Assembly (NCBI GenBank): GCA_963714095.1
Contig: OY970230.1
Coordinates: 198,206 to 262,205, forward strand
Length of the DNA: 64,000 nt
From: Candidatus Gottesmanbacteria bacterium
GTDB taxonomy: Bacteria; Patescibacteriota; Microgenomatia; UBA10105; UBA927
Direction of reading: 5' to 3'
The position numbers and the translations under genes were made by a program. This document shows positions 4,996 to 64,000 of this stretch, piece by piece; position 1 is the first letter of the stretch, and the number at the start of each line of letters is the position of its first letter. The notes under the pieces were generated by a model that was not told the DNA's origin, searched no databases, and was given only the letters and a program-made list of their open reading frames with translations.

Positions 4996-5634
4996 CTAGA
5001 CTGCGCCTTTACCGGAGATCATTGCCCACGGACTCCTGAAAAGTATGGCGATATCCATGAGCAGTGACCGTTTTTTTACGTAATCCGCATCCATTTTAAT
5101 CCGTTTATCAAAATTCACCTCGCTTCTCCCCGACACCTGCCAATGCCCGGTAATGCCAGGTTTGGCAGACAGCACAATTTTCACTAAATTTTTGGTATGC
5201 GGGTATTTCCGCTGCTGTTCCACGAGTTCGTCCGGATAATACGGACGGGGTCCCACGAGACTCATGTCTCCGCGGATCACATTCACAAGCTGGGGAATTT
5301 CATCAAGAGAATGTTTCCTTATAAACCGTCCCACCCGAGTGACCCGGGGATCATCCAACAGTTTGTAACTATTCCGTTTATATTCGCTGTACAGTTTTGC
5401 CAACTTAGGATCACTCCGGAGCTGTTCATGGGCATTCACGACCATGGAGCGGAATTTAAAGAGTTTAAAGAGTTTCCCGTTTTTTCCGACCCGCTGGGGA
5501 GTATCGGCAAATACCGGACCTTCACTATCCAAAACAATTGCGACGGCTGTAATAAGGCTGATCGGCAGAAACAAAAGGAATATGAATATGCTTCCCACAA
5601 GATCAATGCATCGTTTAATAAACGTGTATATCAT
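4996..5634 (-). CDS. polyprenyl-phosphate sugar-1-phosphate transferase (small PglC/WbaP-C-terminal type initiating phosphoglycosyl transferase)
   Basis: Single N-terminal membrane helix. Conserved bacterial sugar transferase motifs: [25 protein letters not shown] and [21 protein letters not shown]. Confidence 0.85.
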
Positions 5635-5646
5635 ACGTTGAACCCC

Positions 5647-6729
5647 TCAGGTAAGATGCTCGTTTTGGGTACCCTTTAAACTTTCAACGAGTTTTTTAAT
5701 TTTCGGAACGGAGGATTTGTTGCAGACCAGAATCACATCGTTTGTTGCAACGATAAGGGCATCCTTCACGTCTATCGTCGTCACCAGCTGATCCGTGTAA
5801 TTATAGACCAATGAATCTTCCGTGTCCGTCAGGAGCACTTTTCCCTCCGTTACGTTTTTATCCGCAGCCTCCTCAAGCGCTTCTTTTAATGCTTCCCACG
5901 CCCCGATATCACTCCATCCGATATCCTCAGAAATAACATAGGCAGTAGACGGATTCAGATTTTCCAGAATCAGATTATCAAAACTGTTTTTTTCCAATGT
6001 AGGATAGACGCTGGCAAGCGTTTCCTCGAACCGATCTGTATGCCAGCTCTCGGAAATACGGGAAAGTCCCGCATATATATTCGGTGCAAACTGTTTATAT
6101 TGCGACCATAAAAATTGCGGCGTGGTGACAAAGTATCCTAGATTCCAAGCATGATGATCACTTTCAAAGTACCGTTTCGCTGTTTTTGCGTCAGGCCGGT
6201 ATTGACAGTCAACAAACGAATAAATTGGAATTTCGTTGGCGGTCATCATTCTTTTACCGTACTCAATCCACCCCAAATTTTCACTGGCAAACCGTGGTTT
6301 TTGCGCAACAAACACTATCCTGTTGGAATCTTTTTTTACAATTTCTCCTGCAGCAACAAGAATTTTCCGGAACAGTGCTTCCTTTTTTACCAAATGATCG
6401 CTCCACACAATGACCATAGGCTCCAGAGGAAAATCCCGGACAAGGAGTGACGTAATCAAACCAACCGCAGGCCCGACATCCCGCATCTCCGGCTCGCCTA
6501 TCACGTGATCAGGCGGCAATTCCCCTAATTGTTTTTGGACGATCGCAACATACGGCGCGCCCGTGGAAACATAGATGTCCTTCCATGAAAAGTCCGGCAG
6601 CAATCTGTTGGCTGCCAGCTGCAAGGTTGAGGAACTTCCTATAATTTTTTCAAACTGTTTCGGAGATTTTTTCCGGGAAAGCGGCCATAACCGCGTTCCC
6701 ACTCCTCCTGCAAAAATGACTGCTTTCAT
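5647..6729 (-). CDS. sugar-phosphate nucleotidyltransferase, mannose-1-phosphate guanylyltransferase-like
   Basis: N-terminal IFAGGVGTRLWPLSRKKSPKQF nucleotidyltransferase signature (GGxGTRLxPL). ~360 aa, without a cupin/isomerase domain. Confidence 0.7.
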   Translation of the reverse strand: MKAVIFAGGVGTRLWPLSRKKSPKQFEKIIGSSSTLQLAANRLLPDFSWKDIYVSTGAPYVAIVQKQLGELPPDHVIGEPEMRDVGPAVGLITSLLVRDFPLEPMVIVWSDHLVKKEALFRKILVAAGEIVKKDSNRIVFVAQKPRFASENLGWIEYGKRMMTANEIPIYSFVDCQYRPDAKTAKRYFESDHHAWNLGYFVTTPQFLWSQYKQFAPNIYAGLSRISESWHTDRFEETLASVYPTLEKNSFDNLILENLNPSTAYVISEDIGWSDIGAWEALKEALEEAADKNVTEGKVLLTDTEDSLVYNYTDQLVTTIDVKDALIVATNDVILVCNKSSVPKIKKLVESLKGTQNEHLT

Positions 6730-7817
6730 TGTATTTTTGTGGCGAGTCTTTCAACCGTGACCCGCATTTCTTTTTTAAATCTTTCTATACCAAAACGTTC
6801 TGCGTTAGCTCTGCATGAACCGCTATCATACCACCCTTTGTTAAATATATGCAAAGCGCGGATCAACGATTCTTTTGTCTGTGCATCAAACAAAATTCCT
6901 GTTTTCCCTTCGATCACAGTTTCCGCCATGCCGCTCTGTCGATAACAGATAACCGGCTTACCGCACGATTGTGCTTCAAGAGCGATTAAACCAAAATCCT
7001 CATCGCCTGCGAACACAAAAGCACGGCACCTTTGATAATAGGCAACAAGATCTGCGTCTGTCAAATAACGCGTAATAAAAGTGATATTATTTTTTGCCCT
7101 CCTCTGCAACACCCGATTGCCCAATCCGCTCCCGATAATTATGAGCGGCCAGCCAAGCTCGTTAAACGCATCAATGACGAGATCTATGCGCTTGTATGGG
7201 ACAAAGCGGGATACCAAAAGAAAATAATTTTCCTTATTCTTTGCAATTCTAAATGTATTCGTATCTATCGGAGGATAAATCACCGTATCGACGTTGCGAT
7301 GATAATATTTCTTTATACGATCCGCGACGTGGCTCGAAATAGTAATGTAATAATCAGGCCGGGAAGAGGCAATTAAATCCCACCGCTTCAGGGTTGGTGT
7401 AAACATTTTCAACATACGTGCGGATACATAATCGGCCCGTTCCATATAGGTCGAATTTCCGCTCCATAAATACCGTGTCGGCGTAAGGCAATAGCAAATA
7501 TGGACGGTGCCCGGCTTGGTAATGATGTTTTTGGCTTCGGCAGACGTCACTGATAGAACCACATCGTACGCGTCAAAAGAAAATGACTCAAACGCCATAG
7601 GGGTAAGCCACGGAAACAGTTCGTGATGCCTTTTTGCAAACGGCACATGCTGCAGAAACGAAGTGTGAACGTCAAAAACGTCTGCCCATGACGCACGGCG
7701 CGGATCATAGACTGCGGTAAAAAGAGGCGCGTCCGGCCAAATCTCATGAAGAGCGAGTAAGACTCGTTCCGCCCCGCCCCATTTATTAACCCGGTCGTAC
7801 ACCAGTGCAATTTTCAT
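6726..7817 (-). CDS. glycosyltransferase family 4 (GT-B)
   Basis: N-term MKIALVYDRVNKWGGAERV and C-terminal GLIALEAQSCGKPVICY donor-binding motif. 4-nt overlap with the downstream gene. Confidence 0.8.
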   Translation of the reverse strand: MKIALVYDRVNKWGGAERVLLALHEIWPDAPLFTAVYDPRRASWADVFDVHTSFLQHVPFAKRHHELFPWLTPMAFESFSFDAYDVVLSVTSAEAKNIITKPGTVHICYCLTPTRYLWSGNSTYMERADYVSARMLKMFTPTLKRWDLIASSRPDYYITISSHVADRIKKYYHRNVDTVIYPPIDTNTFRIAKNKENYFLLVSRFVPYKRIDLVIDAFNELGWPLIIIGSGLGNRVLQRRAKNNITFITRYLTDADLVAYYQRCRAFVFAGDEDFGLIALEAQSCGKPVICYRQSGMAETVIEGKTGILFDAQTKESLIRALHIFNKGWYDSGSCRANAERFGIERFKKEMRVTVERLATKIQ

Positions 7818-8271
7818 ATATTTTTAACGTATCACTCGCCATTTTGTGCCAGGAATATTTTTTCACAATACTTGAATCAACTGGTGGTCTTTTTTTTGCT
7901 GCACGGGTCAAAATTTTTGCAAGATCCTCTGCGCTGTGCGGATCAAAATAGATTGCACAGTTCCCGAGTATCTCATGAAACACAGGAATGTCGCTTACTA
8001 TCACGGGACAATTATTTGCAAGAGCTTCAAGGGCCGGAAGACCGAACCCTTCCATAAGCGAAGGAAACACGAGCGCCTGGGCATTTTTATATAACTCTGA
8101 AAGTTCTACGTCGGTTACGGTTTTGGGTTGTACCCCTAATCGTTTATAGAAAAAATCATCGTTCCCGACAAAAACAACCCGTACACCGGCCTTCAATGCA
8201 GCGCGCATAAGTAACTCCACATTCTTATGCGGGTATGCATTCCCCACGTATAAAAAATAGTTATCCTTCAT
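7786..8271 (-). CDS. GT4 C-terminal (donor-binding) domain only; half of a split GT4
   Basis: Begins YFLYVGNAYPHKNVELLMRA, the start of the GT-B C-domain. Contains EGFGLPALEALANNCPVIVSD. 161 aa. Its start overlaps the stop of the N-domain ORF (8261..8782) by 11 nt. Confidence 0.6.
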   Translation of the reverse strand: MKDNYFLYVGNAYPHKNVELLMRAALKAGVRVVFVGNDDFFYKRLGVQPKTVTDVELSELYKNAQALVFPSLMEGFGLPALEALANNCPVIVSDIPVFHEILGNCAIYFDPHSAEDLAKILTRAAKKRPPVDSSIVKKYSWHKMASDTLKIYENCTGVRPG

Positions 8272-8782
8272 AAATAACTTCTATCTGCTCGGACAACACA
8301 TCAAAATGATCAAGAATTTCTTTTTTCGTACTTTCCGAAACGGCAATTATTTTTTCGCTCCAGAAAATTGCTTTTAACAGAGAAATATAATATCCCAGGC
8401 GGCGGATTTTGTAGAAAACATACGACAGCGTCGTTGCTTTTCCTGTGTCAAAATGCAAAATCGTCAGGTCGTGGATGGTCACGATACATTTTCCGAAATA
8501 GAAAAGCGGGACATTAAAATAGGGAACATGCAAAAGATCGAGATGCTCACTGTTAAAAATCGCCGGCATGAACAGCTGTTCAGTGACACTATGCCATGGA
8601 ATGTCCGCTAACCGTTTCGTCCATCTGGCATTAGGCAATGCAAACGAATCAAACGCAGATTTCCGTAAAAAAACCACGTAGGAATTTTTATCATCAATCT
8701 TCCCCAATTCTGCAATAAGATTGCGGACATATCGTCCGACGCCGGTCTCGTTTACAAGACGTGCATCTATGCCTATCTTCAT
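8261..8782 (-). CDS. GT4 N-terminal (acceptor) domain only; half of a split GT4
   Basis: MKIGIDARLVNETGVGRYVRNL N-domain signature. Ends ...EQIEVIYEG immediately after the N-domain terminal motif. 173 aa. Confidence 0.6.
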   Translation of the reverse strand: MKIGIDARLVNETGVGRYVRNLIAELGKIDDKNSYVVFLRKSAFDSFALPNARWTKRLADIPWHSVTEQLFMPAIFNSEHLDLLHVPYFNVPLFYFGKCIVTIHDLTILHFDTGKATTLSYVFYKIRRLGYYISLLKAIFWSEKIIAVSESTKKEILDHFDVLSEQIEVIYEG

Positions 8783-9648
8783 ATAGAAAATTGTTTTAAG
8801 AAAAATAACCGCATCGAATAAAATAGATTAATGACGAGAGATACAACCGGTCCGTATTTTTTCGCATAATGTTTTTTGTAAAACAGCCAGTTATACTCAT
8901 GAAAATAAATCTCGGTTATAACCGCCCGCGAACGAAGAGCACTGCTTCTTCCGCTCTGCTTCTTCTTATGAAGGACTATCGCCTCCGGATTAAACCACAC
9001 TTCCCAACCCTTCTGTTTAAACCGGTACGCCCAATCGATATCCTCAGCATACATAAAATAATCTTCATCAAGGAGACCCACCTCATGTATTGCCTCACTC
9101 CTAGCAAAGAAAAATGCACCGCTCACGCAGTCCACCTGATGGGGAATCGTGATATTTTTGTACCCCATGTGATACTGCCCGAAGATGCGCGACTCTGGGA
9201 ATAATTTTTCAAGACCAATCATATACGTGAAAGCTGCCCACGGCGTCGGGAATCCCCTGTGGCACGCCGGATCCATCTTTCCGTTTGCCAATTCCAGCCG
9301 GCAGGTGGCAGCCCCCGCCTTCAGGTGCCCGTCCATAAACCGCAGCATCGCGCCGATGGAGCCCTCCCGGATCTCCGTATCTGAATTTAACAGTAAAATA
9401 TATTTTCCTTTGGCAATTTTTATCCCTTTGTTATTCGCTTTGGCAAACCCTAAATTCTTCGTGTTCAAAATGAGCCGTATGTCGGGAATCTTTTTGAATA
9501 GTTCCGTGCTTCCGTCGGACGACCCGTTATCTACCACGATAATTTCCAACACTACTCCTTCCGACCACTTCCGTATCGAGTCCAGACATGCCTTCGTCAT
9601 GTCTTTTGTGTTGTAATTGACAATAATAATGGAAAGCTCAGTGTTCAT
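8779..9648 (-). CDS. glycosyltransferase family 2 (GT-A)
   Basis: LSIIIVNYNTKDMTKACLDSI ... VVDNGSSDGS GT2 N-terminal signature. Confidence 0.8.
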   Translation of the reverse strand: MNTELSIIIVNYNTKDMTKACLDSIRKWSEGVVLEIIVVDNGSSDGSTELFKKIPDIRLILNTKNLGFAKANNKGIKIAKGKYILLLNSDTEIREGSIGAMLRFMDGHLKAGAATCRLELANGKMDPACHRGFPTPWAAFTYMIGLEKLFPESRIFGQYHMGYKNITIPHQVDCVSGAFFFARSEAIHEVGLLDEDYFMYAEDIDWAYRFKQKGWEVWFNPEAIVLHKKKQSGRSSALRSRAVITEIYFHEYNWLFYKKHYAKKYGPVVSLVINLFYSMRLFFLKQFSI

Positions 9649-10786
9649 ACGCTTCTATCCAAACTCTGTCCTGTTGTTGGGCTATCCTGTCCCACGAATA
9701 TTCTTTTTCTATAAGCGCACGGGCGTTATGTACGATATCCGCACGCTTTTTTGCGTCACGAAGTTTTACTATCGATTCCAAAATTTCATCAGTAGTATCG
9801 GCAACCAAAAAATGTTTTTCTGCTTCTCCCTGCATCCCCGCGATTCCCAAAGAAGAAGCTACAACCGGCAGTCCTGCTGCCATCGCTTCCAATATTTTAT
9901 ATTTTGTCCCGCCCCCGATACGTATAGGAGCCAGCATAATGTCTGCACCGTTGAGTTCATCCTGAATACTGTCTACGCTGCCGGCATAATACGGACCGCG
10001 CGGAGCATATTTACCCACGATACGAAGCTGAGCGTCGGGGTACACTTTGCCAATCGCTGGCCAAATATCATGGATAATGTACTGGGCTGCGTCCCTGTTT
10101 TCCATCCACCGGAAATTCCCGACATATAAAAATTTTGGATTTTTGGACATTATTTTTTTCGGACGGAATGCAAACGCCTTCGTATCTACGCCGTTGGGCA
10201 CGACGGAAACATTGGGCTGCCCTATATACGACCGGTCACTTTCCGACACGGAAATTATCTTTGTTGCCTTTCTCCACACATGCCGTTCCCACAATTTCAT
10301 TTTTATGACATCGCGTAAAAGCAGCGGCCGCAGTACACCGATTTTAAATTTCCTCACATAGGATTCATACACGGTATGTTCAATGTTATGTTCGGCTACA
10401 ACTATAGGAATACGGTGCTCCGTCGGAATCGAGGGCCATACGTATCCCGGCTCGATATGGATACAATCATAGTTACCCATGGAAATCTCATCAGATAAAA
10501 GCGCAAGCATCTCACTGTTATGATAACTTTGCCATAATAACGGGTATGAACCGATCATGGATTTTAATAGATATTTCGGCTGCCACACGCGTCCGCGGTG
10601 TACCGTTGTGACACTTTTACAAAATGACAATTCCGGCAAGTATTTCTTTTCACTTTCTGACCGGATAAACGAATAAAGATGGATCTCGTGTATTCCCGCG
10701 AGGCGTTTCAGTAAATTATATATGCGGATCTGACCTCCGGAGTACAGCGGGTATGGCAATATTGCTGATACGAATAAAATCTTCAT
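9638..10786 (-). CDS. glycosyltransferase family 4
   Basis: MKILFVSAILPYPLYSGGQIRIYNL N-domain and KYKILEAMAAGLPVVASS C-domain motif. Confidence 0.8.
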   Translation of the reverse strand: MKILFVSAILPYPLYSGGQIRIYNLLKRLAGIHEIHLYSFIRSESEKKYLPELSFCKSVTTVHRGRVWQPKYLLKSMIGSYPLLWQSYHNSEMLALLSDEISMGNYDCIHIEPGYVWPSIPTEHRIPIVVAEHNIEHTVYESYVRKFKIGVLRPLLLRDVIKMKLWERHVWRKATKIISVSESDRSYIGQPNVSVVPNGVDTKAFAFRPKKIMSKNPKFLYVGNFRWMENRDAAQYIIHDIWPAIGKVYPDAQLRIVGKYAPRGPYYAGSVDSIQDELNGADIMLAPIRIGGGTKYKILEAMAAGLPVVASSLGIAGMQGEAEKHFLVADTTDEILESIVKLRDAKKRADIVHNARALIEKEYSWDRIAQQQDRVWIEAYEH

Positions 10787-10790: not shown

Positions 10791-12236
10791 TTACTTTGCC
10801 GCAGCAGGTGTCGCTTCTTTTGGCTTTGTTAAATCAATGATTGCAAATGTATCGTTCCGTACTAATACCGTGTACTTTGCGGCAAGGTCGCGGGTCTCAG
10901 TATCGGCATCGGTTGGTGACACGGTGACGTATGCAGTTGCTCCCATGGCGATTTTCTTATCGATATCAAACCCCTCGGGCCAACCCTGACGCTGGGTCTG
11001 ATACAAAAATGTCGTGTCTCCGTTATATGGCGCTATCACTTTGGCATCTTTCGGAAGTATAGCGTCGGCGGCTTTCCCCGCCGCAACAATTTCAGGATGA
11101 TTAATCCAATAATATGTCCGTATCGTAAACCATGAAAAACCGAGCGCCGCGGCTATACTTAGAATCGCGACGATAATCCCGGGAATTTTCATTCTGAACA
11201 GTGATACGAAGCCTTTCGCGGTATAAATCGCGACAACCGGAAGAATAAGAATTTGATAATAATCATGCTGGACGTTGCCTGTGGCAAAAATAATAAAATA
11301 CAGAAGAGTTCCGACGGCTAACCATCGGAAAATCCATCCTTCTTTTTTATCCGCAGATGACGCCAGGCCTAAACCGAACGGGATAAGCCCCCAGAATCCG
11401 AGGATAAGATCTCCCAAACGGGTCGCAAAAAGCCAGTGAAACCATGCGCCTTTGAAGCGGATACCGTTGCCGTTTAATAACCATGTACTTGCCGGAATGC
11501 CTTCCGGAAATTGAAGTATCCAGCGGCGCCATAATAAAAGTGGGATCACCGAAATAGTGCCGTACAGAAGGTATTTAAAAAATGTTTGTTTCGAAATACC
11601 AGATTGCCTAAAAATAATATACGGGATGGGAATAAGAAGAAATACCGCCATGGGTTTAGACAACAATGCCAATGCGCCTGCAATAGCGCTGACAATGACC
11701 CAGCGAAAATTTTTCCTCCGCCCGACCAGCCACAAACTCAACACGGACCAGAATACCATCTGCGGATCCGGCAGTATGGTTCTGCCGTAGTACATACTGT
11801 ACGGCAGTACAGCAAAAAGAAATGCAGCAAACAAACCGGTAACAGGGTCAATATATTGGGCTACCAATAGTCCTAAGACAACCGTTGTTCCGGCGGATGC
11901 CGCGATCGTCACGATTCGGAGCCACACTTCAATCGGAATCTTCGGAATACTCAATTTGCCCAATACCGCAATAACCTGATAGATCGGGAATTCCACCATC
12001 CGCCAGCCCTGCGGGTTATCTTTACCGGATTGAATGTTCGAGAGGTCATCATATCTCGGGTGTAGTGGGTCTATCCCGAACCGCAAAAAATTCCGGGCAA
12101 CAGCAGCGGTATCGGCCTGGCGCCAACTATGCCAGTCCGCGACCGGATACGTAATATGGTATAACCGCACACCACAAGCCGCCACGCCAATACAAAACAA
12201 AAGGGGAATAAAATATTTAGCGATAAATTTTCCCAT
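10791..12236 (-). CDS. GT-C fold membrane glycosyltransferase, GT39/ArnT-like
   Basis: Polytopic, about 11 predicted helices. First loop WHSWRQADTAAVARNF...RYDDLS has the acidic DD motif. YSMYYGRTILPDPQMVF resembles the ArnT/PMT family. Confidence 0.6.
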   Translation of the reverse strand: MGKFIAKYFIPLLFCIGVAACGVRLYHITYPVADWHSWRQADTAAVARNFLRFGIDPLHPRYDDLSNIQSGKDNPQGWRMVEFPIYQVIAVLGKLSIPKIPIEVWLRIVTIAASAGTTVVLGLLVAQYIDPVTGLFAAFLFAVLPYSMYYGRTILPDPQMVFWSVLSLWLVGRRKNFRWVIVSAIAGALALLSKPMAVFLLIPIPYIIFRQSGISKQTFFKYLLYGTISVIPLLLWRRWILQFPEGIPASTWLLNGNGIRFKGAWFHWLFATRLGDLILGFWGLIPFGLGLASSADKKEGWIFRWLAVGTLLYFIIFATGNVQHDYYQILILPVVAIYTAKGFVSLFRMKIPGIIVAILSIAAALGFSWFTIRTYYWINHPEIVAAGKAADAILPKDAKVIAPYNGDTTFLYQTQRQGWPEGFDIDKKIAMGATAYVTVSPTDADTETRDLAAKYTVLVRNDTFAIIDLTKPKEATPAAAK

Positions 12237-12239
12237 ACA

Positions 12240-22077: not shown

Positions 22078-22081
22078 GCAT

Positions 22082-44421: not shown

Positions 44422-44500
44422 AAGTACAATTTCCTTGATTGTATCAAAAGCCGGACATTTCTTCTTGTAAGACATATAGAAGCGTCCTATACTTATCCGC

Positions 44501-50784: not shown

Positions 50785-50796
50785 CTTCAGTATCAA

Positions 50797-56823: not shown

Positions 56824-57615
56824 TTACCCTATGTTTATGCGGAAATTCAATTCCGGATCAAACCGCCACTTTCGTTTGCTTGCATCATCATAATAATGAA
56901 GAATACGCAAACGATAAAATACTGCAAGAGTATCATTCAGCGTATTGTAAATGACCGGCAGAAATTTTCTCCAGGAAATGCTCGATTTTGCGGAAAATAA
57001 ATTAATTTCTATCGGCGCTTCATATATTTTTCTGTATCCTAAATAATATGCCACGGCAAGTATTTCAATATCGAAGGCAAATTGTTTTACGAGGAGTCTC
57101 GGAAGAACATCTTCTAGAAGCTTTCGCCTGTATATTTTCATCCCCACCTGCGTATCACGCACATTTAGTCCGAATAATATTCTCGTAATTTGTTGATATA
57201 CCCACGAAATAATTTTTCGTATATACGGATACTCTACTTTTGAATCCGGGTGGCGTTTACTTCCGATAATTGCATCCGCATGTTGAAACTCAAATTCTGC
57301 AAGCATGAGAGGAAGTGCTTCCGGCTTAAGATCTCCCCCCGCATCCATAAAACCGACAACATCTCCTTTTGCCTGAGAAAAACCGAATCGCACTGCATAT
57401 CCCTTTCCGTGATTGGTTTGATAACCTGTTATATGAACCCGAGAATCATGTATTGTTTTAATTTCTTCTGTGCTCTTATCCAATTTTCCGTCAATGACCG
57501 GAATAATCTCAAAATCTCTATGCATCTTTGATAATACGTTGATGATATCCGTGATATCACGTTTAATTGTTTTTTCCTGTTTATAGACCGGAATAATAAG
57601 ACTAAATTTTTTCAT
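56824..57615 (-). CDS. GT2 polyprenol-phosphate glycosyltransferase-like
   Basis: FSLIIPVYKQEKTIKRDI ... VIDGKLDKST ... GFMDAGGD pattern. Confidence 0.7.
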   Translation of the reverse strand: MKKFSLIIPVYKQEKTIKRDITDIINVLSKMHRDFEIIPVIDGKLDKSTEEIKTIHDSRVHITGYQTNHGKGYAVRFGFSQAKGDVVGFMDAGGDLKPEALPLMLAEFEFQHADAIIGSKRHPDSKVEYPYIRKIISWVYQQITRILFGLNVRDTQVGMKIYRRKLLEDVLPRLLVKQFAFDIEILAVAYYLGYRKIYEAPIEINLFSAKSSISWRKFLPVIYNTLNDTLAVFYRLRILHYYDDASKRKWRFDPELNFRINIG

Positions 57616-58858
57616 GGGATCCTAAAAGATAATATCCTCCGGCAATTATATCGTAAAGCATACATACGCTGATATTAATATAAATAACTCCGATTATACT
57701 CGAATGGAACATACTTATACCGATAATCTGCACGACCGCCGCTCCCATAGAAAATAACCAAATATGCAGTTTTCCAACGGCCAGACATGACATTGCGATG
57801 ATGTTGGCCACGGAAAACAGGCCCAGGAAAATCCCGAACAGCCCCAGCATTGCCCCTGCCCCGGCATATGCGTTTCCAAAAAGCATACCTACGATAAAGT
57901 TCGGGAACACAAAATAAAGAATGGTTATGGCAACCGATATTGCTCCAACTATTCCGACGGCAGAAAAAATAAGTTTTTTTGTTTTGGAGCCCGTGGCTAC
58001 CCGCTCAGAAGCAATCGGAAAAAGCACTATTGGAACAGCCGATGACGCGTAAAATATAATTTTTCCGAGAATCGCCAGCGCGGCATACAATCCTGCGTCA
58101 TGCGCACTGAAAAAATGTCTGACGAGTATGATATCCGTTGAGTAAAGTGATGTAATACCAAGCTGCATGAGAAGCGTTGGTACTGCAAAGGCAAACATAT
58201 CACGGCCTTTAAGTTTTGTTGGCCGCGCCTTTACCGACAACACGAATCGAAGCGGAATAAAATACAAAGCGTAAACAATAATACTCGCCAGTACCGCAGC
58301 CAACATCACTCCCGGGACTCCCCACGCGACCAAAGGAATACTCACCAAAAGTTTTACAAGGATGGCAAGAGCTCCCATAACGCCCACCCAAATAAATTTT
58401 TGATATCCGTTCAGCATGCCTGCTGTTGCAACTGTTACCAGTGAAACAACGAACAATGCATAGAGGAGCATAATCAATACTGAAGACGATAAATGAAGAA
58501 ATGATGTTATATACGGTCCTGTTATGAGAATAATCGGCACACCAACCACGGTGACTATCACAAATACTTTCGTTGCTTCAATGAAGAGCGATTTCGCCTG
58601 TCCGACTTCGCCATGTGCTTTAAAACCTGAAACAAATTTCACGATCACGGTTTGCGCAACCGTCAGCGGCACGGTAAATATATAGAGGAGCGATAAAAGA
58701 GAAGCTAATGCGCCATAGCCGGACGGACCAAGAAGTCTTCCCATTATCAGGTGATACAGGTACGAAAGCACATTGGCGCTCATGGTCCCGACAAAGACGA
58801 TAGCGCTGCTCCGTGCTAATTTATTTGAGGTAAACTTCTGTATAAATCCTTTATTCAT
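57602..58858 (-). CDS. Wzx-type oligosaccharide flippase (MOP superfamily)
   Basis: 418 aa, about 12 TM. N-term ARSSAIVFVGTMSANVLSYLYHLIMGRLLGPSGYG is typical of polysaccharide biosynthesis / Wzx proteins. Confidence 0.7.
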   Translation of the reverse strand: MNKGFIQKFTSNKLARSSAIVFVGTMSANVLSYLYHLIMGRLLGPSGYGALASLLSLLYIFTVPLTVAQTVIVKFVSGFKAHGEVGQAKSLFIEATKVFVIVTVVGVPIILITGPYITSFLHLSSSVLIMLLYALFVVSLVTVATAGMLNGYQKFIWVGVMGALAILVKLLVSIPLVAWGVPGVMLAAVLASIIVYALYFIPLRFVLSVKARPTKLKGRDMFAFAVPTLLMQLGITSLYSTDIILVRHFFSAHDAGLYAALAILGKIIFYASSAVPIVLFPIASERVATGSKTKKLIFSAVGIVGAISVAITILYFVFPNFIVGMLFGNAYAGAGAMLGLFGIFLGLFSVANIIAMSCLAVGKLHIWLFSMGAAVVQIIGISMFHSSIIGVIYINISVCMLYDIIAGGYYLLGSHEKI

Positions 58859-58872
58859 ACGTTATCGCGTAT

Positions 58873-60336
58873 CTAGCGCCATTCCTCTGTTTGCCTGTAT
58901 ATCTCACTGGAGTTGATACGTTGATACCCCGCCTTACTAAGCTCTGCACTTGAACTGCCGGACAAATCCAAAAAAGACGTGCCCCCTATACGAAATGATT
59001 GCCGATTTTCAACATTATTTGATGGTATCATATTCATTCCGATTTTAATTCCTGCCTCACCTGCCCGCCCTTCCGCCTCCAGGAACAGCTCTAGGGCTAA
59101 GGGTAAAGGATATTGAGCTTTATAATCATACAAAGCAATGTGTTTTCCTGGGTACCGTGAATATAACGATGTTTTCCAAATCTTAACTAATTGATCTACC
59201 ACATTAACTTTTCCTGTAATCTCTCTACAATCGGATGTAAAGCTCATTATAACAACGAATAGACAAACTAGAATTCCCAGGAATCGAGATTTCATAAATA
59301 TCTTATAAACTACCCAGGCGGAAAGGGTGAGGATAAATGGCTGAAGAAATACCGTATAGCTATCGAATAAAGGAACGTGTGAGTAGCGGAGCATACCTAA
59401 AATTCCGAAAAAAGAACAAATAATTACAATAAATTCAGCAACAATTTTTTTTCTGATGCATCCATATATAAATAACACCGAGACCAATATCATAAAGCCT
59501 GCTCCTATAAATTGATTGCCTCCGATTATTCTTCCCCATGTCGTTGGCCAATAAATTGTAAGGTATGTCAACCATCTTCTTCCTAAAGCTTCCAGTGGTA
59601 TGCGATACTGATCAAAACGGATGTAATAGATCATATTTCTCATATTAACGAACCCGTTCCGTATATCGAATAGTAATATCGGTAATGCACCAATAATACC
59701 GCCTGCGAGTAACAAAAGAACATTTGATACGTGAAATTTTTTCTCCGTGATTTGTGCGATTAAAACACAAATTCCGAGGATAAAAAGACCGCTACCCTGA
59801 AGATGAAAAGACGCACCCGTTGAAATCAAAAAACCTAATGCAAAGATATAACGGTTCTTACCTGATCGTAAAAAACGAACAACTGACCATAATGCGAATA
59901 TCGATATTATTGCCAAGGGAGATTCATTTGTCAGGCTGACTGATTGAGCGATTTGAGCGGTTGATACCGCGCTAAATAATCCCAATAAAATTCCAAACTT
60001 CGTATCAATTAACTCTGTACCAAACTGAATCATCAAGTAAACAAAAAAAACATATATCAAAGTCAAAACTATCCAGGGAGTTAAGACAGAAGCCGGATAT
60101 AACGCGGTTGCCGCCATAATAAACCAATACCACTGACCACCTGTTTGAAATGGTCCAGCTGACGAAAAAGGTCCGAGAAGCGGAATTTTATGTTCAGCGA
60201 GAGCCGCACGGGCAACAAGAGCGTCATGAGCTTGATCATACCCGAGCTCCCAACGATTACCATAATCGTAAAACCTCAAAATAAATGCCAAGAGAACAAT
60301 GCCTACTGTAACGATAATTATGCTATGTTTCTTCAT
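58873..60336 (-). CDS. GT-C fold membrane glycosyltransferase, GT39/ArnT-like
   Basis: First loop YDYGNRWELGYDQAHDALVARAAL. Polytopic. Adjacent to the DPM-like GT2 (ArnC/ArnT-like pairing). Confidence 0.6.
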   Translation of the reverse strand: MKKHSIIIVTVGIVLLAFILRFYDYGNRWELGYDQAHDALVARAALAEHKIPLLGPFSSAGPFQTGGQWYWFIMAATALYPASVLTPWIVLTLIYVFFVYLMIQFGTELIDTKFGILLGLFSAVSTAQIAQSVSLTNESPLAIISIFALWSVVRFLRSGKNRYIFALGFLISTGASFHLQGSGLFILGICVLIAQITEKKFHVSNVLLLLAGGIIGALPILLFDIRNGFVNMRNMIYYIRFDQYRIPLEALGRRWLTYLTIYWPTTWGRIIGGNQFIGAGFMILVSVLFIYGCIRKKIVAEFIVIICSFFGILGMLRYSHVPLFDSYTVFLQPFILTLSAWVVYKIFMKSRFLGILVCLFVVIMSFTSDCREITGKVNVVDQLVKIWKTSLYSRYPGKHIALYDYKAQYPLPLALELFLEAEGRAGEAGIKIGMNMIPSNNVENRQSFRIGGTSFLDLSGSSSAELSKAGYQRINSSEIYRQTEEWR

Positions 60337-60352
60337 GAAGACTACACAGTTA

Positions 60353-61039
60353 CTAATTTATAAACCGGTATTTAATGATCGTCCAGAAAGCAATAATGCC
60401 GTCACGCCATGTCAGTTTTTTCCCTTCATTAAACTTTCTTCCGTAATAGGAAATAGGGACTTCATATATTTGGTACCCGTTTTTAAGTACTTTGACTGTA
60501 AGTTCCGGTTCGACATCAAACCGCTTGGCACGAATCGTGATTCCGTTCAGCACCCCATGCCGGAATACTTTGTAACAGGTTTCCATATCCGTGATATCGG
60601 TATTGAATAATATGTTTGTTACAAATGTCACAAATTTATTCCCCTGCGCATAAATGAACATAGTTGAAAGATGTGGGCCCAAAAATCGCGAGCCGTACAC
60701 CACATCAACGTGCGGGTTGTCAAATGGAGATAAAAGCACGGGGTAATCGTTCGGACTATATTCCAAATCCGCATCCTGAACCAAGATCACGTCTCCCGTA
60801 GCTTTTTTAAATCCGATGCTTAAGGCGTTTCCCTTTCCTTCATTTTTTTCTTTGTAAATAACACGTACCTTCTTCTCCCAGGATTTCAAAACCGTTTTTG
60901 TGCGGTCTTTTGATCCGTCATCAACAACAATTATTTCCTTTGACCAGCCGGGTATGGCAACCTTTTCGATCCGCTGAAGGATTTCGTTAATCGTATGTTC
61001 TTCGTTATACACGGGTACGATAACGGAAAGTTTTTTCAC
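60353..61039 (-). CDS. GT2 polyprenol-phosphate glycosyltransferase (DPM1/ArnC-like)
   Basis: LSVIVPVYNEEHTINEIL ... VVDDGSKDRT ... QDADLEYSP. 228 aa, soluble. Confidence 0.8.
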   Translation of the reverse strand: MKKLSVIVPVYNEEHTINEILQRIEKVAIPGWSKEIIVVDDGSKDRTKTVLKSWEKKVRVIYKEKNEGKGNALSIGFKKATGDVILVQDADLEYSPNDYPVLLSPFDNPHVDVVYGSRFLGPHLSTMFIYAQGNKFVTFVTNILFNTDITDMETCYKVFRHGVLNGITIRAKRFDVEPELTVKVLKNGYQIYEVPISYYGRKFNEGKKLTWRDGIIAFWTIIKYRFIN

Positions 61040-62076
61040 ACCAATGCCCTTTCATACGCCGCGACAGTCTCCACTACGACTCTTTTCCAGGTAAACTGTT
61101 TTACCCATACCAATTGACGCATCGCCTGAGCTCGTCTGTCGACAGTAAGCATTTTCTTTATGCCCGCAAGGATCTCTTCCGGTTTTGGTGACACCTGTAA
61201 CGCCGGCCCTGCTATCTCTTTGAGGCTTGAGGTATTTGTGCAAACAACCGGGCAACCGCAGGCCATAGCTTCCAGTACCGGCAGACCGAATCCCTCATAG
61301 TAAGAGGGTTGTACATAGACCGAAGCCATGGAGTAAAAACCAGCAAGATCAGCCAGAGGCACGTTTCCCGGACAAATAACCACGTGTTCCAAATCATGCT
61401 CAAGAATAAACTGATTGATTTCCTGCGTTTCGGTGAGCGTCTCGCAAAATGCTCGGCCGACAAGAACTAATTTATATTCTAATAATTCACTGTGTTGACG
61501 AAGCGCTGCAAAAGCCTGCAATAGCCCGATCACATTTTTATTCCAATTGACGTCCCCGACAAAAAGAATATATTGTTTTGGTAAGGCATATTTCTTTCGT
61601 ATAGCAGCTACTAATTTTGAATCGGTAACCGGATGATACATCGCGTCACGAGCTAAATAAACAGTATCGACAATCTCTTTTTTAACGCCTACAATCCGTA
61701 CAATATCATTTTTTGAAGCGTTTGAGTCAGCAATAATTCGACTCGCGCCTCGAAGTGACAATTTCTGGACCTGCCATTTGATGTTGCCGCGGATGCCTGC
61801 CGGAAATTTGTACGGGAACACCAGAGGAATAAGGTCGTGAACCGTCACCAAAGTCGGCTCCGGTTTAACCAGAGGCAACGTCAGGAAAAACGGGTCAAAA
61901 TACGGATAATGCACGATATCTGCATCGTCCGGCACACGCTGATGACCTGTAAAATAAATATATGTGTGCTGTTTTCCGTATTTTTCCAACCCATCAATAA
62001 GATTCTTCGTATACACACCGATCCCCCGTGCGCGATGCGCGGATTCCAAAGGAGTTATGTCTATTGCTACCTTCAT
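61036..62076 (-). CDS. glycosyltransferase family 4
   Basis: MKVAIDITPLESAHRARGIGVYTKNL N-domain and EGFGLPVLEAMACGCPVVCTNTSSLKE C-domain. Start trimmed from the track ORF. ATGA overlap with the upstream gene. Confidence 0.75.
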   Translation of the reverse strand: MKVAIDITPLESAHRARGIGVYTKNLIDGLEKYGKQHTYIYFTGHQRVPDDADIVHYPYFDPFFLTLPLVKPEPTLVTVHDLIPLVFPYKFPAGIRGNIKWQVQKLSLRGASRIIADSNASKNDIVRIVGVKKEIVDTVYLARDAMYHPVTDSKLVAAIRKKYALPKQYILFVGDVNWNKNVIGLLQAFAALRQHSELLEYKLVLVGRAFCETLTETQEINQFILEHDLEHVVICPGNVPLADLAGFYSMASVYVQPSYYEGFGLPVLEAMACGCPVVCTNTSSLKEIAGPALQVSPKPEEILAGIKKMLTVDRRAQAMRQLVWVKQFTWKRVVVETVAAYERALV

Positions 62077-63641
62077 TGTAAAGAAGTATACCCTAAAATG
62101 ACCAGAACGGCCACGCTTATAACTGAAAGCGCATCCGCGACTTTTCGCACGGGCGTATCGGCAAACCACACGCGGATAGCGTGAGTTCCCTGCGGCACGG
62201 ATATATGTATGATGCCGTCACCTCTATAGTTGATGGGGACTTCTTTGCCGTCAACGGATGCTGTCCATCCGGGAAAATACAGCGTACTCACCGTTACAGT
62301 ACCGGCTTTGTCCATAAGGACGGTAAAATCCTTTTCCATGTACTCCCAACGAGTCTTCTGGGTCATCTGCCCGTTTTCAATTGCATACGGTGCTGCCGGC
62401 CGAGTAGTTTTCCATCCTGTCCAGATCGTCGAGAAACTGTTTCCCATAGACGAGGTTCCGTCGGTAAAATTCGGCCTTGCCAGGTAGTATGCCTCGTTTC
62501 GCGGTTCATAAAGAACCGGACGTGCGTAGGACGCGGCAAGCGCGACACTCAAAACAGCCAAGAATAACCCCCACCACGGACGTTTTAGTCTACTAGTCCA
62601 TACTGCCGCGCTGAAACCGGCAACCGGAATAACAAATGATAACAATCTCCAGGGGTATTGCACAAACGAGAGAGGCTTTATAAGCTCCCACAGAGGAGTA
62701 GAAATCGGCAACATAAAAACGATGCACAAACCGATGATACTCAAAAAATACGCAAATAATTTCGTGTAAGCGCTTTTTGGCTTACGCAACAAAACCCATA
62801 ATGCTCCTGCCATTGCCAACATCGGGGCTATTCCTATCTGTACGGACATGGCAGTACCAAAACTTCCGGTTCCTGAAAAACCTGTTCCCCAGGATGGAAT
62901 TAATAGTTCATACCAGTCAACAAAATATTGCCGGAAGTTCACGGTATTGAGACCCACAACATATTTGGATTCGATAAGTGCCGGCAGCCAGAAAAATGCG
63001 GAAAGTCCGATCCCACCAAGCATCCATAGGGCTCCTTTTTTATTCCGAATAAGAGCATACCCCAGTAAAAACGGCGTATAAAGCATCGCCATGATGTTGT
63101 GCGAAAGAATAAGGAGCCCATATACAATAGCGAACCAGAATAACTTTTTCTTTTCCAGCAGGTAAAAGCACAACAAAAGAAATGCAGTCGCCCAGACTTC
63201 ACCGATCGATCCGCGCACGTACATATCGACAAAAAGATACGGGACAAAGGCGGCAACGATTGATCCGACTGCGGACGGAAGGGCACCAAACAGGGTCAGT
63301 AGCCAGAGAAAAGCCGCCGCTGAGAGTGCTATATACCCCAAACCCATACTCATCTGAAATGCGTATACAGCATCATGAGTCAACATGCGCATAAATGAAC
63401 CGATATAGTCAGGCATGGGGTACTGATAATTAAAAATGGGTATCCCGTACCCGCTGTTCATATCCGGCGCCCATCGGGGAACTATGTATCCGGCTCCCAA
63501 CATCCGGGAAAATTCGACGATGCGGATAATATGATATTCACCGTCATGTGTCGGTATATACGCCTTACCAAACAGTGGACTGACCGCAAAAAAAATTGCC
63601 GCAATACATATGACGGCGGAGAGGACTACAGTTTTTTTCAT
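62073..63641 (-). CDS. polytopic membrane protein (GT-C-like candidate)
   Basis: 522 aa, about 13 TM. Early loop IPTHDGEYHIIRIVEF. Confidence 0.35.
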   Translation of the reverse strand: MKKTVVLSAVICIAAIFFAVSPLFGKAYIPTHDGEYHIIRIVEFSRMLGAGYIVPRWAPDMNSGYGIPIFNYQYPMPDYIGSFMRMLTHDAVYAFQMSMGLGYIALSAAAFLWLLTLFGALPSAVGSIVAAFVPYLFVDMYVRGSIGEVWATAFLLLCFYLLEKKKLFWFAIVYGLLILSHNIMAMLYTPFLLGYALIRNKKGALWMLGGIGLSAFFWLPALIESKYVVGLNTVNFRQYFVDWYELLIPSWGTGFSGTGSFGTAMSVQIGIAPMLAMAGALWVLLRKPKSAYTKLFAYFLSIIGLCIVFMLPISTPLWELIKPLSFVQYPWRLLSFVIPVAGFSAAVWTSRLKRPWWGLFLAVLSVALAASYARPVLYEPRNEAYYLARPNFTDGTSSMGNSFSTIWTGWKTTRPAAPYAIENGQMTQKTRWEYMEKDFTVLMDKAGTVTVSTLYFPGWTASVDGKEVPINYRGDGIIHISVPQGTHAIRVWFADTPVRKVADALSVISVAVLVILGYTSLQ

Positions 63642-64000
63642 ACCTTTCGTTTCGCAAGATACCGGAATCCGAGATATCCCGCATAGAAGACTAAAGGAAT
63701 GACGGTTAATCCGGAACGAAGAGCGGGCCCGGGTCCTTCATAATACCCCATCCACATATACGGAAGATTCCGTAGTTCCAAGGCAAATGAGAGTACTATC
63801 GTAAATCCCCACAAATACCGATGTGACGCAAACGGCAATAATGCTGCGGTTGCAACGAGCCATACTGCATACCATGGATACAATTCTTCGCGGATCGGGG
63901 CAACGATAAAAAAGACCGCTGCCAGAAAAATATATGCATATACGAGCATCCGTTCAAAAGAGACATTCCGGAAAAACAGAAGTGGCGCCAATACAACCGT
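63638..64000 (-). CDS. membrane protein, probably 5'-truncated by the window edge
   Basis: Three or four hydrophobic helices. The frame may be open to the window boundary. Confidence 0.3.
   Translation of the reverse strand, partial: TVVLAPLLFFRNVSFERMLVYAYIFLAAVFFIVAPIREELYPWYAVWLVATAALLPFASHRYLWGFTIVLSFALELRNLPYMWMGYYEGPGPALRSGLTVIPLVFYAGYLGFRYLAKRKV

Follow-up and report, generated by a model that had tools for sequence, protein, structure and literature searches.

A large glycan locus, probably a cell-envelope mosaic of several pathways, in a Microgenomates-group bacterium

The stretch of 64,000 nucleotides analysed here (the window) comes from a Patescibacteria/Microgenomates bacterium, whose closest named relatives are Gottesmanbacteria/Microgenomates (CPR), and holds an unbroken run of glycan genes that amounts to at least 6% of a genome of ~1.09 Mb. 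A preliminary description, made from the letters alone, had inferred a probably CPR-like organism, correctly, and had proposed a glycan locus of ~59 kb. Pfam and NCBIfam scans, which took in all 55 large open reading frames (ORFs), bear the locus out: each of the 51 ORFs in 4996-64000 belongs to it, and 49 of them received a glycan-related assignment, the only two without one being a 73-aa ORF (20915-21136) and a 760-aa ORF (22814-25096). The description had named failed family assignment as grounds for rejection; the HMM scans placed almost all ORFs in glycan families.

The limits first given, 4996 and 64000, are too narrow at both ends. The locus starts with a conserved DUF4012 gene that is part of it (2946..4940; 664 aa, one N-terminal transmembrane helix [TM], Pfam DUF4012 79.9 bits) and that adjoins the phosphoglycosyl transferase (PGT) gene in the related loci L051, L078, and L084. 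Past the window end the locus runs on for at least 4.8 kb, and an independent 7.8-kb contig adds a minimum of five genes past 64000: those of a GT-C-like 380-aa protein, a 162-aa protein, a GT2, and a PMT_2-like 542-aa protein, and one further ORF. The window end cuts the gene of the 380-aa membrane protein, leaving its 3′ part (63638..64000), while L088 holds the complete gene with further glycan genes upstream. The precomputed Pfam tag of this protein is MptA_B_family, which a fresh Pfam scan did not reproduce.

Genes are tightly packed and nearly all point the same way, with 47 of 50 large ORFs (48 of 51 when the 73-aa ORF is counted) on the minus strand; coordinates here refer to that strand unless marked plus. 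Neighbors overlap or lie within 25 nt at 37 of 45 same-strand junctions. The description was right about strand and packing but not about 4-nt ATGA overlaps at most junctions: there are nine (eight ATGA, one GTGA), and four more if internal ATG starts are used, that is, 9-13 of 45.

The locus encodes a single PGT, a single Wzx-type flippase, and a single WaaL/Wzy-like domain, as had been proposed. The PGT (4996..5634, 212 aa, Bac_transf 202 bits) is a small initiating enzyme with the catalytic domain only, matching the NCBIfam EPS_sugtrans/WbaP models over their C-terminal domain, and the flippase (57602..58858) has at least nine TM and a Polysacc_synt_3 score of 37.2 bits (cut-off 23). GT2/GT4 genes, initially put at roughly 20, number 18 ORFs, three of them half-size. 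Full GT4 enzymes number seven, at 6726..7817 (Glycos_transf_1, 95.5 bits), 9638..10786 (Glyco_trans_1_4 69.7 bits, Glyco_transf_4 44 bits), 16635..17768 (Glycos_transf_1, 110.6 bits), 36578..37765 on the plus strand (Glyco_trans_1_4, 47.4 bits), and 38820..39983, 54499..55608, and 61036..62169 (Glycos_transf_1; 60, 132.4, and 109.1 bits). The three half-size ORFs comprise one GT4 split in two, with a C-terminal half at 7786..8271 (161 aa, Glycos_transf_1 78.9 bits) and an N-terminal half at 8261..8782 (173 aa, Glyco_transf_4 42.1 bits), and one stand-alone GT4 N-terminal domain at 17765..18325 (186 aa, Glyco_transf_4 41.8 bits). The split (7786..8782) recurs in L084 with the same 11-nt overlap and is a single ORF in L078; the stand-alone domain is conserved as its own 180-187-aa ORF in L081, L083, L084, and L089.

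Eight GT2 enzymes complete the set, all matching Glycos_transf_2. Five lie at 8779..9648 (95 bits), 15202..16071 (85.5 bits), 34587..35612 (47.3 bits), 41672..42709 (97.4 bits), and 43594..44670 (94.4 bits, from residue 89, with the true start probably close to 44421). The other three are small DPM1/ArnC/GtrB-like proteins, all encoded near GT-C genes. The first (22082..22792, 236 aa), which in the PDB best matches the P. furiosus Dol-P-Man synthase 5mlz (E 8e-24) and then ArnC, is a probable polyprenyl-phosphate-sugar synthase. The second (56824..57615, 263 aa, 86.3 bits) matches 5mlz at E 4e-11 and ArnC at E 1.5e-10, and the third (60353..61039, 228 aa, 125.8 bits), which adjoins a GT-C gene, matches 5mlz (E 3e-22), then ArnC and GtrB. 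Together, the three probably supply lipid-linked sugar donors. A GtrA/ArnEF-type flippase for polyprenyl-phosphate sugars, a chain-length regulator, and an LCP-type wall ligase were expected and not found in the locus.

The earlier count of about 11 GT-C-like polytopic proteins also stands, with 10 stand-alone proteins, the C-terminal half of a 997-aa protein, and the ORF cut by the window end; five of these candidates rest on sub-threshold Pfam matches or topology. Above threshold are a PMT_2/ArnT-type enzyme (10791..12236, 481 aa, PMT_2 35.5 bits, cut-off 26.1) with the motif RQAD in the loop after TM1, and a YfhO/PTPS_related protein (62073..63641, 522 aa; PTPS_related 30.3 bits, cut-off 26.4; YfhO 24.8 bits; a weak PgfM1 match). 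PMT_2-like candidates below that cut-off lie at 31626..33356 (576 aa, 25.2 bits, loop motif WDEHQY), 44994..46997 (667 aa, 22.1 bits and topology, 254-aa C-terminal domain), and 58873..60336 (487 aa, 20.5 bits, loop motif YDQAHD). GT-C-like by topology only, with no Pfam or NCBIfam match, are a 537-aa protein of GC 0.38 (18327..19940), which has a 77% homologue in L089 and is absent from L084 and L081, and a 557-aa protein (40021..41694) with QQDEW in the loop after TM1, ~9 TM, and a 154-aa C-terminal domain.

The 997-aa protein (12240..15233) is a fusion with a two-module fold, in which a WaaL/Wzy_C-like module (1-500), the only such domain in the locus, precedes a GT-C module (~505-997). Further along the window, a 619-aa protein of GT-C fold (25121..26980) represents a family without Pfam matches. 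It can be tied to the AftD-like 986-aa protein (28669..31629), which consists of an N-terminal GT-C-like module, a ~500-aa external region, and C-terminal TM, belongs to a family of 2891 cluster representatives, and has AftD as its best PDB profile match (E 3e-4): hhalign aligns the two families over 461 columns with 93% probability (E 3.5e-7) and D36 opposite D136. Three families have conserved acidic residues where the first external loop begins (D136, D36, and D546/D547). Between these two genes, a polytopic 580-aa protein (26984..28726) with a BLASTP match to the product of 28669-31629 (E 7e-8) and a weak MmpA-family match (36.7 bits) is probably another GT-C.

The 760-aa protein (22814..25096), with a signal peptide, a ~430-aa external domain, and ~6 TM, has no Pfam or PDB match. 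Its topology is not that of a GT-C; it is a partner of the neighboring GT-C, its homologue being fused to that of the 619-aa protein in L084 as well as in four further proteins. The 73-aa ORF (20915..21136, 2-3 TM) is conserved, with 59-82% identical ORFs at the matching position in four relatives.

All the nucleotide-sugar routes that had been proposed, namely, GDP-Man, UDP-Gal, UDP-Xyl, and CDP-hexose, have matching enzymes. GDP-Man would be supplied by a mannose-1-phosphate guanylyltransferase-like protein (5647..6729; NTP_transferase and ManC beta-helix) that scores 213 bits with TIGR01479, below the cut-off because it lacks the PMI domain. GalE (19900..20910; TIGR01179 398.8 bits, cut-off 262.3) and a UDP-glucuronate decarboxylase, or UDP-xylose synthase (UXS; 21133..22116; phmmer match to human UXS1, 4gll, E 1.3e-99), follow. 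The CDP-hexose enzymes are an RfbH/E1-type CDP-6-deoxy-4-hexulose 3-dehydrase (47721..49031; NF011936 650.5 bits, cut-off 423), a CDP-glucose 4,6-dehydratase-like SDR (52724..53686; best match TIGR02622, 189.5 bits, under the cut-off of 278), and a glucose-1-phosphate cytidylyltransferase-like protein (53665..54441; TIGR02623 272.8 bits full-length, cut-off 300). Also encoded are a transketolase-like ThDP enzyme in C-terminal (49028..49954; Transket_pyr and Transketolase_C) and N-terminal (49951..50796; Transketolase_N 111.7 bits) subunits, a DegT-family sugar aminotransferase (50922..52034; 330 bits, LegC/PseC-like under cut-offs), and an RfbH-like DegT-family PLP enzyme (55617..56807; 216 bits). 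A further SDR epimerase/dehydratase (37774..38823; Epimerase 132.8 bits) matches no NCBIfam model above its cut-off. A UDP-glucose dehydrogenase feeding UXS and an E3 reductase for RfbH were sought in the locus and not found.

Acetyl- and methyltransferases, also anticipated, are represented by four and two genes, respectively. The former comprise a WcaF-like hexapeptide-repeat O-acetyltransferase (16075..16695; Hexapep, WcaF family 83 bits), for which a start at 16638 is probable and gives a 4-nt overlap, a membrane O-acyltransferase on the plus strand (33382..34593; Acyl_transf_3 98.4 bits), a WbbJ/WcaF-like hexapeptide-repeat enzyme (35769..36455; Hexapep 48.7 bits), and a GNAT N-acetyltransferase (52021..52719; Acetyltransf_3 37.7 bits). 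Both methyltransferases are SAM-dependent (42772..43587, DUF268 42.2 and Methyltransf_11 32 bits; 46976..47680, Methyltransf_11 64.8 bits).

Comparison with relatives divides the locus in two. A collinear core (~2.9-31.6 kb of the window) is shared by L084, L089, L081, L083, L078, L026, and L051, in the order DUF4012, PGT, GDP-Man enzyme, GT4 and GT2 genes, PMT_2 GT-C, and 997-aa fusion, then GT2, acetyltransferase, GT4 pair, GalE, 73-aa ORF, UXS, and GT-C trio. The distal half, by the evidence of five relatives each viewed through a ~22-kb window, is variable: its modules are rearranged, the CDP-sugar module lying between the 619-aa and 760-aa gene homologues in L089, and RfbH close upstream of the 986-aa homologue in L081 with only a methyltransferase gene between. 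GC in the distal half is below that of the core (0.36-0.38 at 33-44 kb vs. 0.45-0.49).

A kept core with rearranged modules favors a mosaic locus that unites several pathways rather than a single one. The locus is rather likely to be the main one for cell-envelope glycans in a Microgenomates-group bacterium (CPR/Patescibacteria), with several pathways co-located. The earlier suggestion of a complex heteroglycan or several glycoconjugates agrees with the HMM and structure evidence, the relatives favoring several pathways. In the proposed scheme, the small PGT would initiate a polyprenyl-diphosphate-linked oligosaccharide at the cytoplasmic face, GT4 and GT2 enzymes would lengthen it, drawing on locus-made GDP-Man, UDP-Gal, UDP-Xyl, and CDP-deoxy or amino sugars, Wzx would flip it across the membrane, and the 997-aa protein would, through its WaaL-like module, transfer or polymerize the glycan onto an acceptor outside, which could be a wall polymer, lipid anchor, or surface protein. 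In parallel, at least three DPM1/ArnC-like GT2 enzymes may make polyprenyl-phosphate monosaccharides that 10-12 GT-C enzymes would use outside the membrane for glycan extension or decoration, on the pattern of mycobacterial arabinogalactan/LAM assembly and of three-component glycosylation systems. Six transferases would add O-acetyl, N-acetyl, and methyl groups. Family membership alone is the basis for predicting donors, acceptors, and linkages. Loci of this kind are already familiar; what is unfamiliar here is the size, the abundance of membrane glycosyltransferases, and one conserved fusion enzyme.

Given the metagenomic source and the GC heterogeneity, one might ask whether the locus is an artefact joining glycan clusters of different genomes, the chimera that the preliminary description had flagged. 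This is very improbable. Three independent assemblies match at 99.87-100%, an ENA contig over 2245-25233 (99.87%) and Logan contigs over 11245-25233 and 57309-60661 (99.99-100%), while 62073-63641 also occurs on a further Logan contig, where its product is identical; no chimerism appears where they overlap the window (2.2-25.2 kb and 57.3-63.6 kb). Furthermore, the window has no long repeats by which contigs could be mis-joined, a recorded 1,088,247-bp contig encodes proteins identical to its own, identical proteins from 12, 22, 25, 58, and 62 kb occur on contigs of 0.2-1 Mb and/or >1 Mb, and the core order is unchanged in a relative at 78% nucleotide identity.

A single linear pathway, in which the whole 65+ kb builds one very complex repeat-unit heteropolysaccharide from a few long operons, would suit the lone PGT, Wzx, and Wzy_C/WaaL-like domain and the tight, nearly uniform strand. 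We consider it improbable, since relatives keep the core yet lack or relocate individual modules, parts differ by ~10 points in GC, and two or three plus-strand genes with several gaps of 120-570 nt indicate several units. Moreover, where a GT-C enzyme has a DPM1-like donor synthase of its own, it works independently of any Wzx/Wzy repeat unit in all characterized systems known to us. Less improbable, though still unlikely, is a mainly general protein O-glycosylation system, with the WaaL/Wzy_C-like module as a PglL- or PilO-like O-oligosaccharyltransferase that equips S-layer proteins or type IV pilins with the lipid-linked glycan and PMT_2-type GT-C enzymes O-mannosylating secreted proteins. 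Protein O-oligosaccharyltransferases do occur in the Wzy_C family, and CPR bacteria, which lack LPS, are unlikely to offer a lipid A-core acceptor. The presence of glycoproteins or a glycosylated S-layer in CPR has been proposed (PMC3812714), and for Saccharibacteria there is a prediction of pilin glycosylation (PMC11623550). However, ORF scans found no S-layer, pilin, or other acceptor gene in or beside the locus, 10-12 GT-C and 18 GT2/GT4 ORFs far exceed the needs of known O-glycosylation loci, and the similarities of AftA, AftD, and MmpA type speak for the assembly of a polymer or lipoglycan. Protein O-glycosylation would fit as one part of the mosaic, not as an alternative to the whole.

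The DNA from position 4996 to the end of the window belongs to a generally familiar type of glycan biosynthesis cluster, set apart by how much of a very small genome it occupies, by how many GT-C enzymes it encodes, and by a conserved fusion enzyme and several unannotated membrane protein families. Fifty-five large ORFs were scanned against Pfam, and most of them against NCBIfam. From 4996 onward there are 51 ORFs, including a 73-aa ORF found in an apparent gap, and all but two, the 73-aa protein and a 760-aa membrane protein (22814-25096), have a glycan-related assignment, bearing out the glycan density and family assignments of the preliminary description. The inventory comprises one small phosphoglycosyl transferase (PGT, 4996-5634; Bac_transf, 202 bits against a cut-off of 27), one MOP-family Wzx flippase (Polysacc_synt_3, 37.2 bits against 23; at least nine TM helices), eight GT2 genes, and a GT4 set of seven full genes, one gene split into two overlapping ORFs and one stand-alone N-terminal domain. 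The only Wzy_C-like domain resides in a 997-aa protein (12240-15233), besides which ten large polytopic membrane proteins have a GT-C-like layout; the 760-aa protein is of a different type. Eleven sugar-nucleotide enzymes, four acyl or acetyl transferases and two methyltransferases accompany them, and the window end cuts one further membrane-protein gene. The initial count of roughly 20 GT2/GT4 enzymes was close, the actual number being 18 ORFs, and that of about 11 GT-C-like proteins agrees with the ten stand-alone proteins plus one fused module.

By ORF listing and composition, minus-strand genes form an almost unbroken run across the window: 47 of the 50 large ORFs (48 of 51 with the 73-aa ORF) lie on that strand, and 37 of 45 same-strand junctions overlap or leave a gap of at most 25 nt. 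The long polycistronic units proposed earlier are still likely, but the 4-nt ATGA overlaps said to link most genes occur at only nine of the 45 junctions, or at 13 if internal ATG starts are allowed. Consensus promoter and terminator counts between 33 and 52 kb were no better than in shuffled sequence. A 222-nt "gap" at 20.9-21.1 kb was considered as an operon break and rejected, since it holds the conserved 73-aa ORF (20915-21136), which encodes two to three TM helices, lies between the genes for UXS (21133-22116) and GalE, and is found at the same position in four relatives at 59-82% identity; its product gave no significant family match. The largest gap in the locus contains a plus-strand ORF (44501-45010) whose 169-aa product has a clear signal peptide and no Pfam match; it may be a real secreted protein.

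Ahead of the PGT gene lie, in the flank, genes for a histidine phosphatase, a small ORF, a class II aminoacyl-tRNA synthetase (GlyRS-like), RecO and a DUF4012 protein. The last of these (2946-4940; 664 aa, one TM helix) adjoins PGT in all four fetched loci that carry it, namely L051 (WWE3), L078, L084 and L085, the latter a 552-kb contig from the same organism, and may supply a chain-length or export role otherwise missing from the locus. Past 64000, a 7.8-kb contig provides the rest of the cut gene (380 aa), followed by a 162-aa ORF, a GT2 gene, a gene for a 542-aa PMT_2-like protein and one more ORF. The DUF4012 linkage and these additional genes therefore extend the locus at least from 2.9 to approximately 68.4 kb in window coordinates. 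Proteins identical to those of the window are on record on a 1,088,247-bp contig, and a locus of at least 65 kb makes up at least ~6% of this ~1.09-Mb genome. The histidine-phosphatase-family gene (39-605, plus strand) flanks the locus; a distant paralogue (26% identity) is found between the 73-aa ORF and GalE in the related locus L089 (14162-14812).

The O-antigen ligase WaaL (PDB 7TPJ/7TPG) is built of 12 helices, the ninth and tenth of which are joined by a large external loop. The 997-aa protein has twelve helices before residue 500 and a fold closest to that of WaaL, including the large external loop, and differs from it in a Pfam Wzy_C score below threshold (residues 224-428; 23.7 bits against 31.7) and in a fused C-terminal GT-C module, whose next external loop opens with D546/D547, invariant in 50 sequences of the family. 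Polymerase and ligase are indistinguishable in silico for such a Wzy_C-like domain. The protein is 47-79% identical across more than 100 homologues, and the WaaL and GT-C fusion has more than 1900 homologues. Because CPR bacteria have been reported to be without lipid A and LPS (PMC3812714), the acceptor must differ from the lipid A-core used by WaaL.

The GT-C fold, with a conserved N-terminal TM module and a long first external loop, occurs among the membrane proteins, and the evidence for it varies from one protein to the next. The PMT_2 model matches the product of 10791-12236 at 35.5 bits, above the threshold of 26.1, and those of 31626-33356 (25.2), 44994-46997 (22.1) and 58873-60336 (20.5) below it; the product of 62073-63641 matches PTPS_related above threshold. 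The conserved acidic residue that opens the first external loop, as expected of a GT-C catalytic residue, is D136 in at least 90% of 65 sequences of the 619-aa protein family (25121-26980) and D36, invariant in 55 sequences, in the family of the 986-aa protein (28669-31629). The latter family, with 2891 cluster representatives, aligns with the 619-aa family in a profile-profile comparison over 461 columns (93% probability, E 3.5e-7), D36 falling on D136, and its best, marginal, PDB profile match is AftD (E 3e-4). The 580-aa protein (26984-28726) has BLAST similarity to the 986-aa protein, and those encoded at 18327-19940 (537 aa) and 40021-41694 are GT-C-like by topology only. Comparison by hhalign of the 619-, 986- and 997-aa family profiles with other single membrane proteins returned nothing, that of family alignment profile A2 with A1 reached no significance, and in PDB sequence searches neither the 760-aa protein nor the profiles of the 619-aa and 997-aa families gave a match. 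No Pfam or NCBIfam match above threshold places any of these proteins in the mycobacterial Aft, Emb or Mpt families; the likeness is limited to fold similarity to AftA, the AftD match at E 3e-4 and weak MmpA matches; our own Pfam scan did not bear out a precomputed MptA_B tag. The 760-aa protein, with a signal peptide, an external domain of ~430 aa and ~6 TM helices, was rejected as a GT-C enzyme on topology. It is nonetheless functionally tied to the 619-aa GT-C protein, because the two, encoded separately here (22814-26980), form one 1356-aa ORF in the related locus L084 (687-4757) and fusion proteins of 1279-1319 aa in four other relatives.

Among the sugar-nucleotide enzymes, GalE scores 399 bits against an NCBIfam cut-off of 262, the UXS protein matches human UDP-glucuronate decarboxylase at E 1e-99, and 47721-49031 encodes RfbH (E1; NF011936, 650.5 bits against 423). 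Glucose-1-phosphate cytidylyltransferase (272.8 bits, cut-off 300.25) and CDP-glucose 4,6-dehydratase (189.5 bits, cut-off 278.45) are the best matches for their respective ORFs and lie below the cut-offs; the GDP-mannose enzyme is without an isomerase domain. Among the window ORFs, neither a UDP-glucose dehydrogenase nor a ferredoxin-reductase-type candidate for the E3 (RfbI/AscD) iron-sulfur flavoprotein reductase was found. Three small GT2 proteins (22082-22792, 56824-57615 and 60353-61039) have an archaeal dolichol-phosphate-mannose synthase as their best PDB match, followed by ArnC and GtrB. Each is encoded beside or near GT-C genes, 60353-61039 adjoining the GT-C gene 58873-60336 and 22082-22792 lying near the GT-C run. 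From the presence of these three DPM1/ArnC-like genes we infer that the GT-C enzymes would use polyprenyl-phosphate sugar donors; no GtrA or EamA/SMR match, as expected of a GtrA- or ArnE/F-type flippase, occurs in any window ORF. Within 47721-50796, the neighbor that follows RfbH is a transketolase-like ThDP enzyme split in two, and in the relatives L081 and L089 RfbH lies instead near an acetolactate-synthase-type ThDP enzyme with a YerE-like domain set. These arrangements suggest that differing ThDP enzymes could extend a 3,6-dideoxyhexose by a two-carbon branch.

Comparison with relatives separates a conserved core from rearranged modules. In L084, at ~78% nucleotide identity, gene order is the same from the 580-aa homologue to RecO and GlyRS. 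The more distant Microgenomates loci L081, L083 and L089 keep the 986/580/619-aa trio (incomplete in L083 and L089), the block of UXS, 73-aa ORF and GalE, and the block of GT4 N-domain ORF, GT4, acetyltransferase, GT2 and 997-aa gene, and portions of the PGT-proximal block are kept in L078, L026 and the WWE3 genome L051. Absent from both L084 and L081 are the 537-aa gene and the DPM1-like GT2 gene 22082-22792. In L089 the CDP-sugar module sits between the 619-aa and 760-aa homologues, and in L081 only a methyltransferase gene separates RfbH from the 986-aa homologue, close upstream of which it is placed; in the window, RfbH and the 986-aa gene are separated by ~16 kb of lower-GC genes (31.6-47.7 kb). 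GC content is 0.45-0.49 in the core against 0.36-0.38 at 33-44 kb. Together, the synteny among relatives and this GC contrast argue for a conserved core joined by rearranged, partly foreign-looking modules. For three of the membrane proteins, homologues bear the labels Gottesmanbacteria, Levybacteria, Daviesbacteria, Microgenomates group or Patescibacteria group, the first four lying within the last, that is, within the CPR. In a species-representative genome set, the three best matches of the GlyRS-like protein share 69-73% identity with it, and one of these three carries the label Patescibacteria group; a protein from a Saccharibacteria MAG shares 57%. Several MAG contigs with close or syntenic relatives (L001, L026 and L078) carry the labels Gammaproteobacteria or Pseudomonadales; since both the genes on these contigs and their order match Patescibacteria, the taxonomy was probably misassigned or the contigs wrongly binned.

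Several known systems share parts of this organization. Wzx/Wzy loci for O-antigen, capsule and EPS, and the lactococcal cwps dual-chain system, likewise start with a PGT, extend with cytoplasmic GT2 and GT4 enzymes, carry a membrane protein of the Wzy_C family together with a Wzx flippase, include NDP-sugar genes and acetyl and methyl modifiers, and join a conserved part to a variable one. In contrast, the present locus is ~3 times larger than is typical and has 10-12 GT-C enzymes; its Wzy_C-like protein is highly conserved rather than hypervariable and is fused to a GT-C module; and no Wzz/PCP protein (no Wzz/GNVR match in any window ORF), export component or LCP ligase was found in it. The arabinogalactan and LM/LAM machinery of Corynebacterineae (Emb, AftA-D, MptA-C, PimE) resembles the locus in its many tandem GT-C enzymes and polyprenyl-phosphate-sugar synthases, in the AftD-like layout and marginal AftD match of the 986-aa family, and in weak MmpA matches and the precomputed MptA_B tag. 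However, that machinery is actinobacterial and the window organism belongs to the CPR with a ~1-Mb genome, sequence membership above threshold is lacking, and no decaprenyl-phospho-arabinose pathway genes were seen in the window. Three-component systems (GtrA/B/C, ArnC/E/F/T, CsbB/GtcA/YfhO) are alike in pairing DPM1/ArnC/GtrB-like GT2 genes with GT-C genes and in a YfhO/PTPS_related protein; they differ in their GtrA- or ArnE/F-family flippase, for which the window has no detected counterpart, in the C-terminal TM helices of GtrB and ArnC, which the window GT2 proteins do not have, and in that here a few donor synthases serve many GT-C genes.

Could so large a locus be an artefact of assembly? 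Agreement with independently assembled sequence makes this unlikely: the 552-kb ENA contig (ERZ25039480 contig_73729) is 99.87% identical over 2245-25233, the Logan contigs of another assembly reach 99.99% identity over 11245-25233 and 100% over 57309-60661, and 62073-63641 is found, with an identical product, on one more Logan contig. Thus, where assemblies overlap (2245-25233, 57309-60661 and 62073-63641), there is no sign of the chimera that the preliminary description had allowed for. Nor was any tRNA, Rfam family or long repeat found in the window, on which ground recent duplication, IS elements and repeat-mediated mis-assembly can be set aside. The 552-kb contig does show seven gap openings in 23 kb; at its positions 15586-17422 (window 7786-9648) the GT2 gene 8779-9648 is annotated in two pieces, and the region of the split GT4 is different as well. 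These differences have the look of indel errors in the assembly and not of true variation.

As to how the locus works, its gene families and folds are established, and for the substrates, order of action and acceptor we infer a scheme in which PGT would initiate a chain, GT4 and GT2 enzymes would extend it in the cytoplasm and Wzx would flip it across the membrane, where the WaaL-like module would transfer or polymerize it outside; GT-C enzymes would then extend or decorate it outside the cell with polyprenyl-phosphate sugars, and acetyl and methyl groups would be added. That the entire locus serves one pathway is unlikely, and protein O-glycosylation by its WaaL-like and PMT-like parts is a serious rival for part of it. 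Our tentative reading, to which we would not yet commit, is that Microgenomates CPR might build their main envelope polymer on a lineage-specific, largely extracytoplasmic assembly line. At its center would stand the ~1000-aa WaaL-like ligase/GT-C fusion, along with several GT-C families unrecognized by domain libraries, one of them recurrently fused to the 760-aa partner. Such a line would be an analogue in logic of mycobacterial arabinogalactan and LAM assembly, evolved in 1-Mb genomes, with variable add-on modules yielding strain-specific surfaces. Were this true, those surfaces would matter for host attachment or phage evasion.

CPR bacteria are abundant, mostly uncultured and thought to live attached to other cells, and to our knowledge their surface chemistry is essentially unknown. 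Their genomes were found to hold abundant glycosyltransferases, and polysaccharides, glycoproteins or a glycosylated S-layer have been suggested (Kantor et al., 2013, PMC3812714); a 2025 paper repeats the remark on glycosyltransferases (PMC12153355), and a study of Saccharibacteria calls glycosylation in that CPR group unexplored (PMC11623550). Our literature searches returned no description of a Microgenomates glycan locus or of a WaaL and GT-C fusion. The analysis supplies a specific set of conserved genes, with their architecture, for an envelope glycan of Microgenomates, and gives a fold to unannotated families (the 619-aa GT-C, the 986-aa AftD-like protein and the 997-aa WaaL and GT-C fusion). 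The locus provides targets for heterologous expression, for glycan-directed labelling or enrichment of cells and for the study of strain-level surface variation.

Two half-size forms of GT4 recur among the relatives. The split GT4 (7786-8782) consists of two ORFs with an 11-nt overlap (ATGAAGGATAA), the break falling at the interdomain linker; L084 (16499-17546; ~78% nucleotide identity) has this break and overlap too, and in the distant relative L078 (2186-3286) the gene is a single intact ORF. The stand-alone N-terminal domain (17765-18325, 186 aa), lies directly upstream of a full-length GT4 gene, and four relatives likewise encode it separately, in ORFs of 180-187 aa. That these ORFs are pseudogene fragments was rejected, since relatives at 68-79% identity retain both the stand-alone N-domain and the split with its 11-nt overlap. 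The split gene looks like one for a functional two-subunit GT-B enzyme and not a frameshift error, and the stand-alone N-domain protein may be an accessory subunit.
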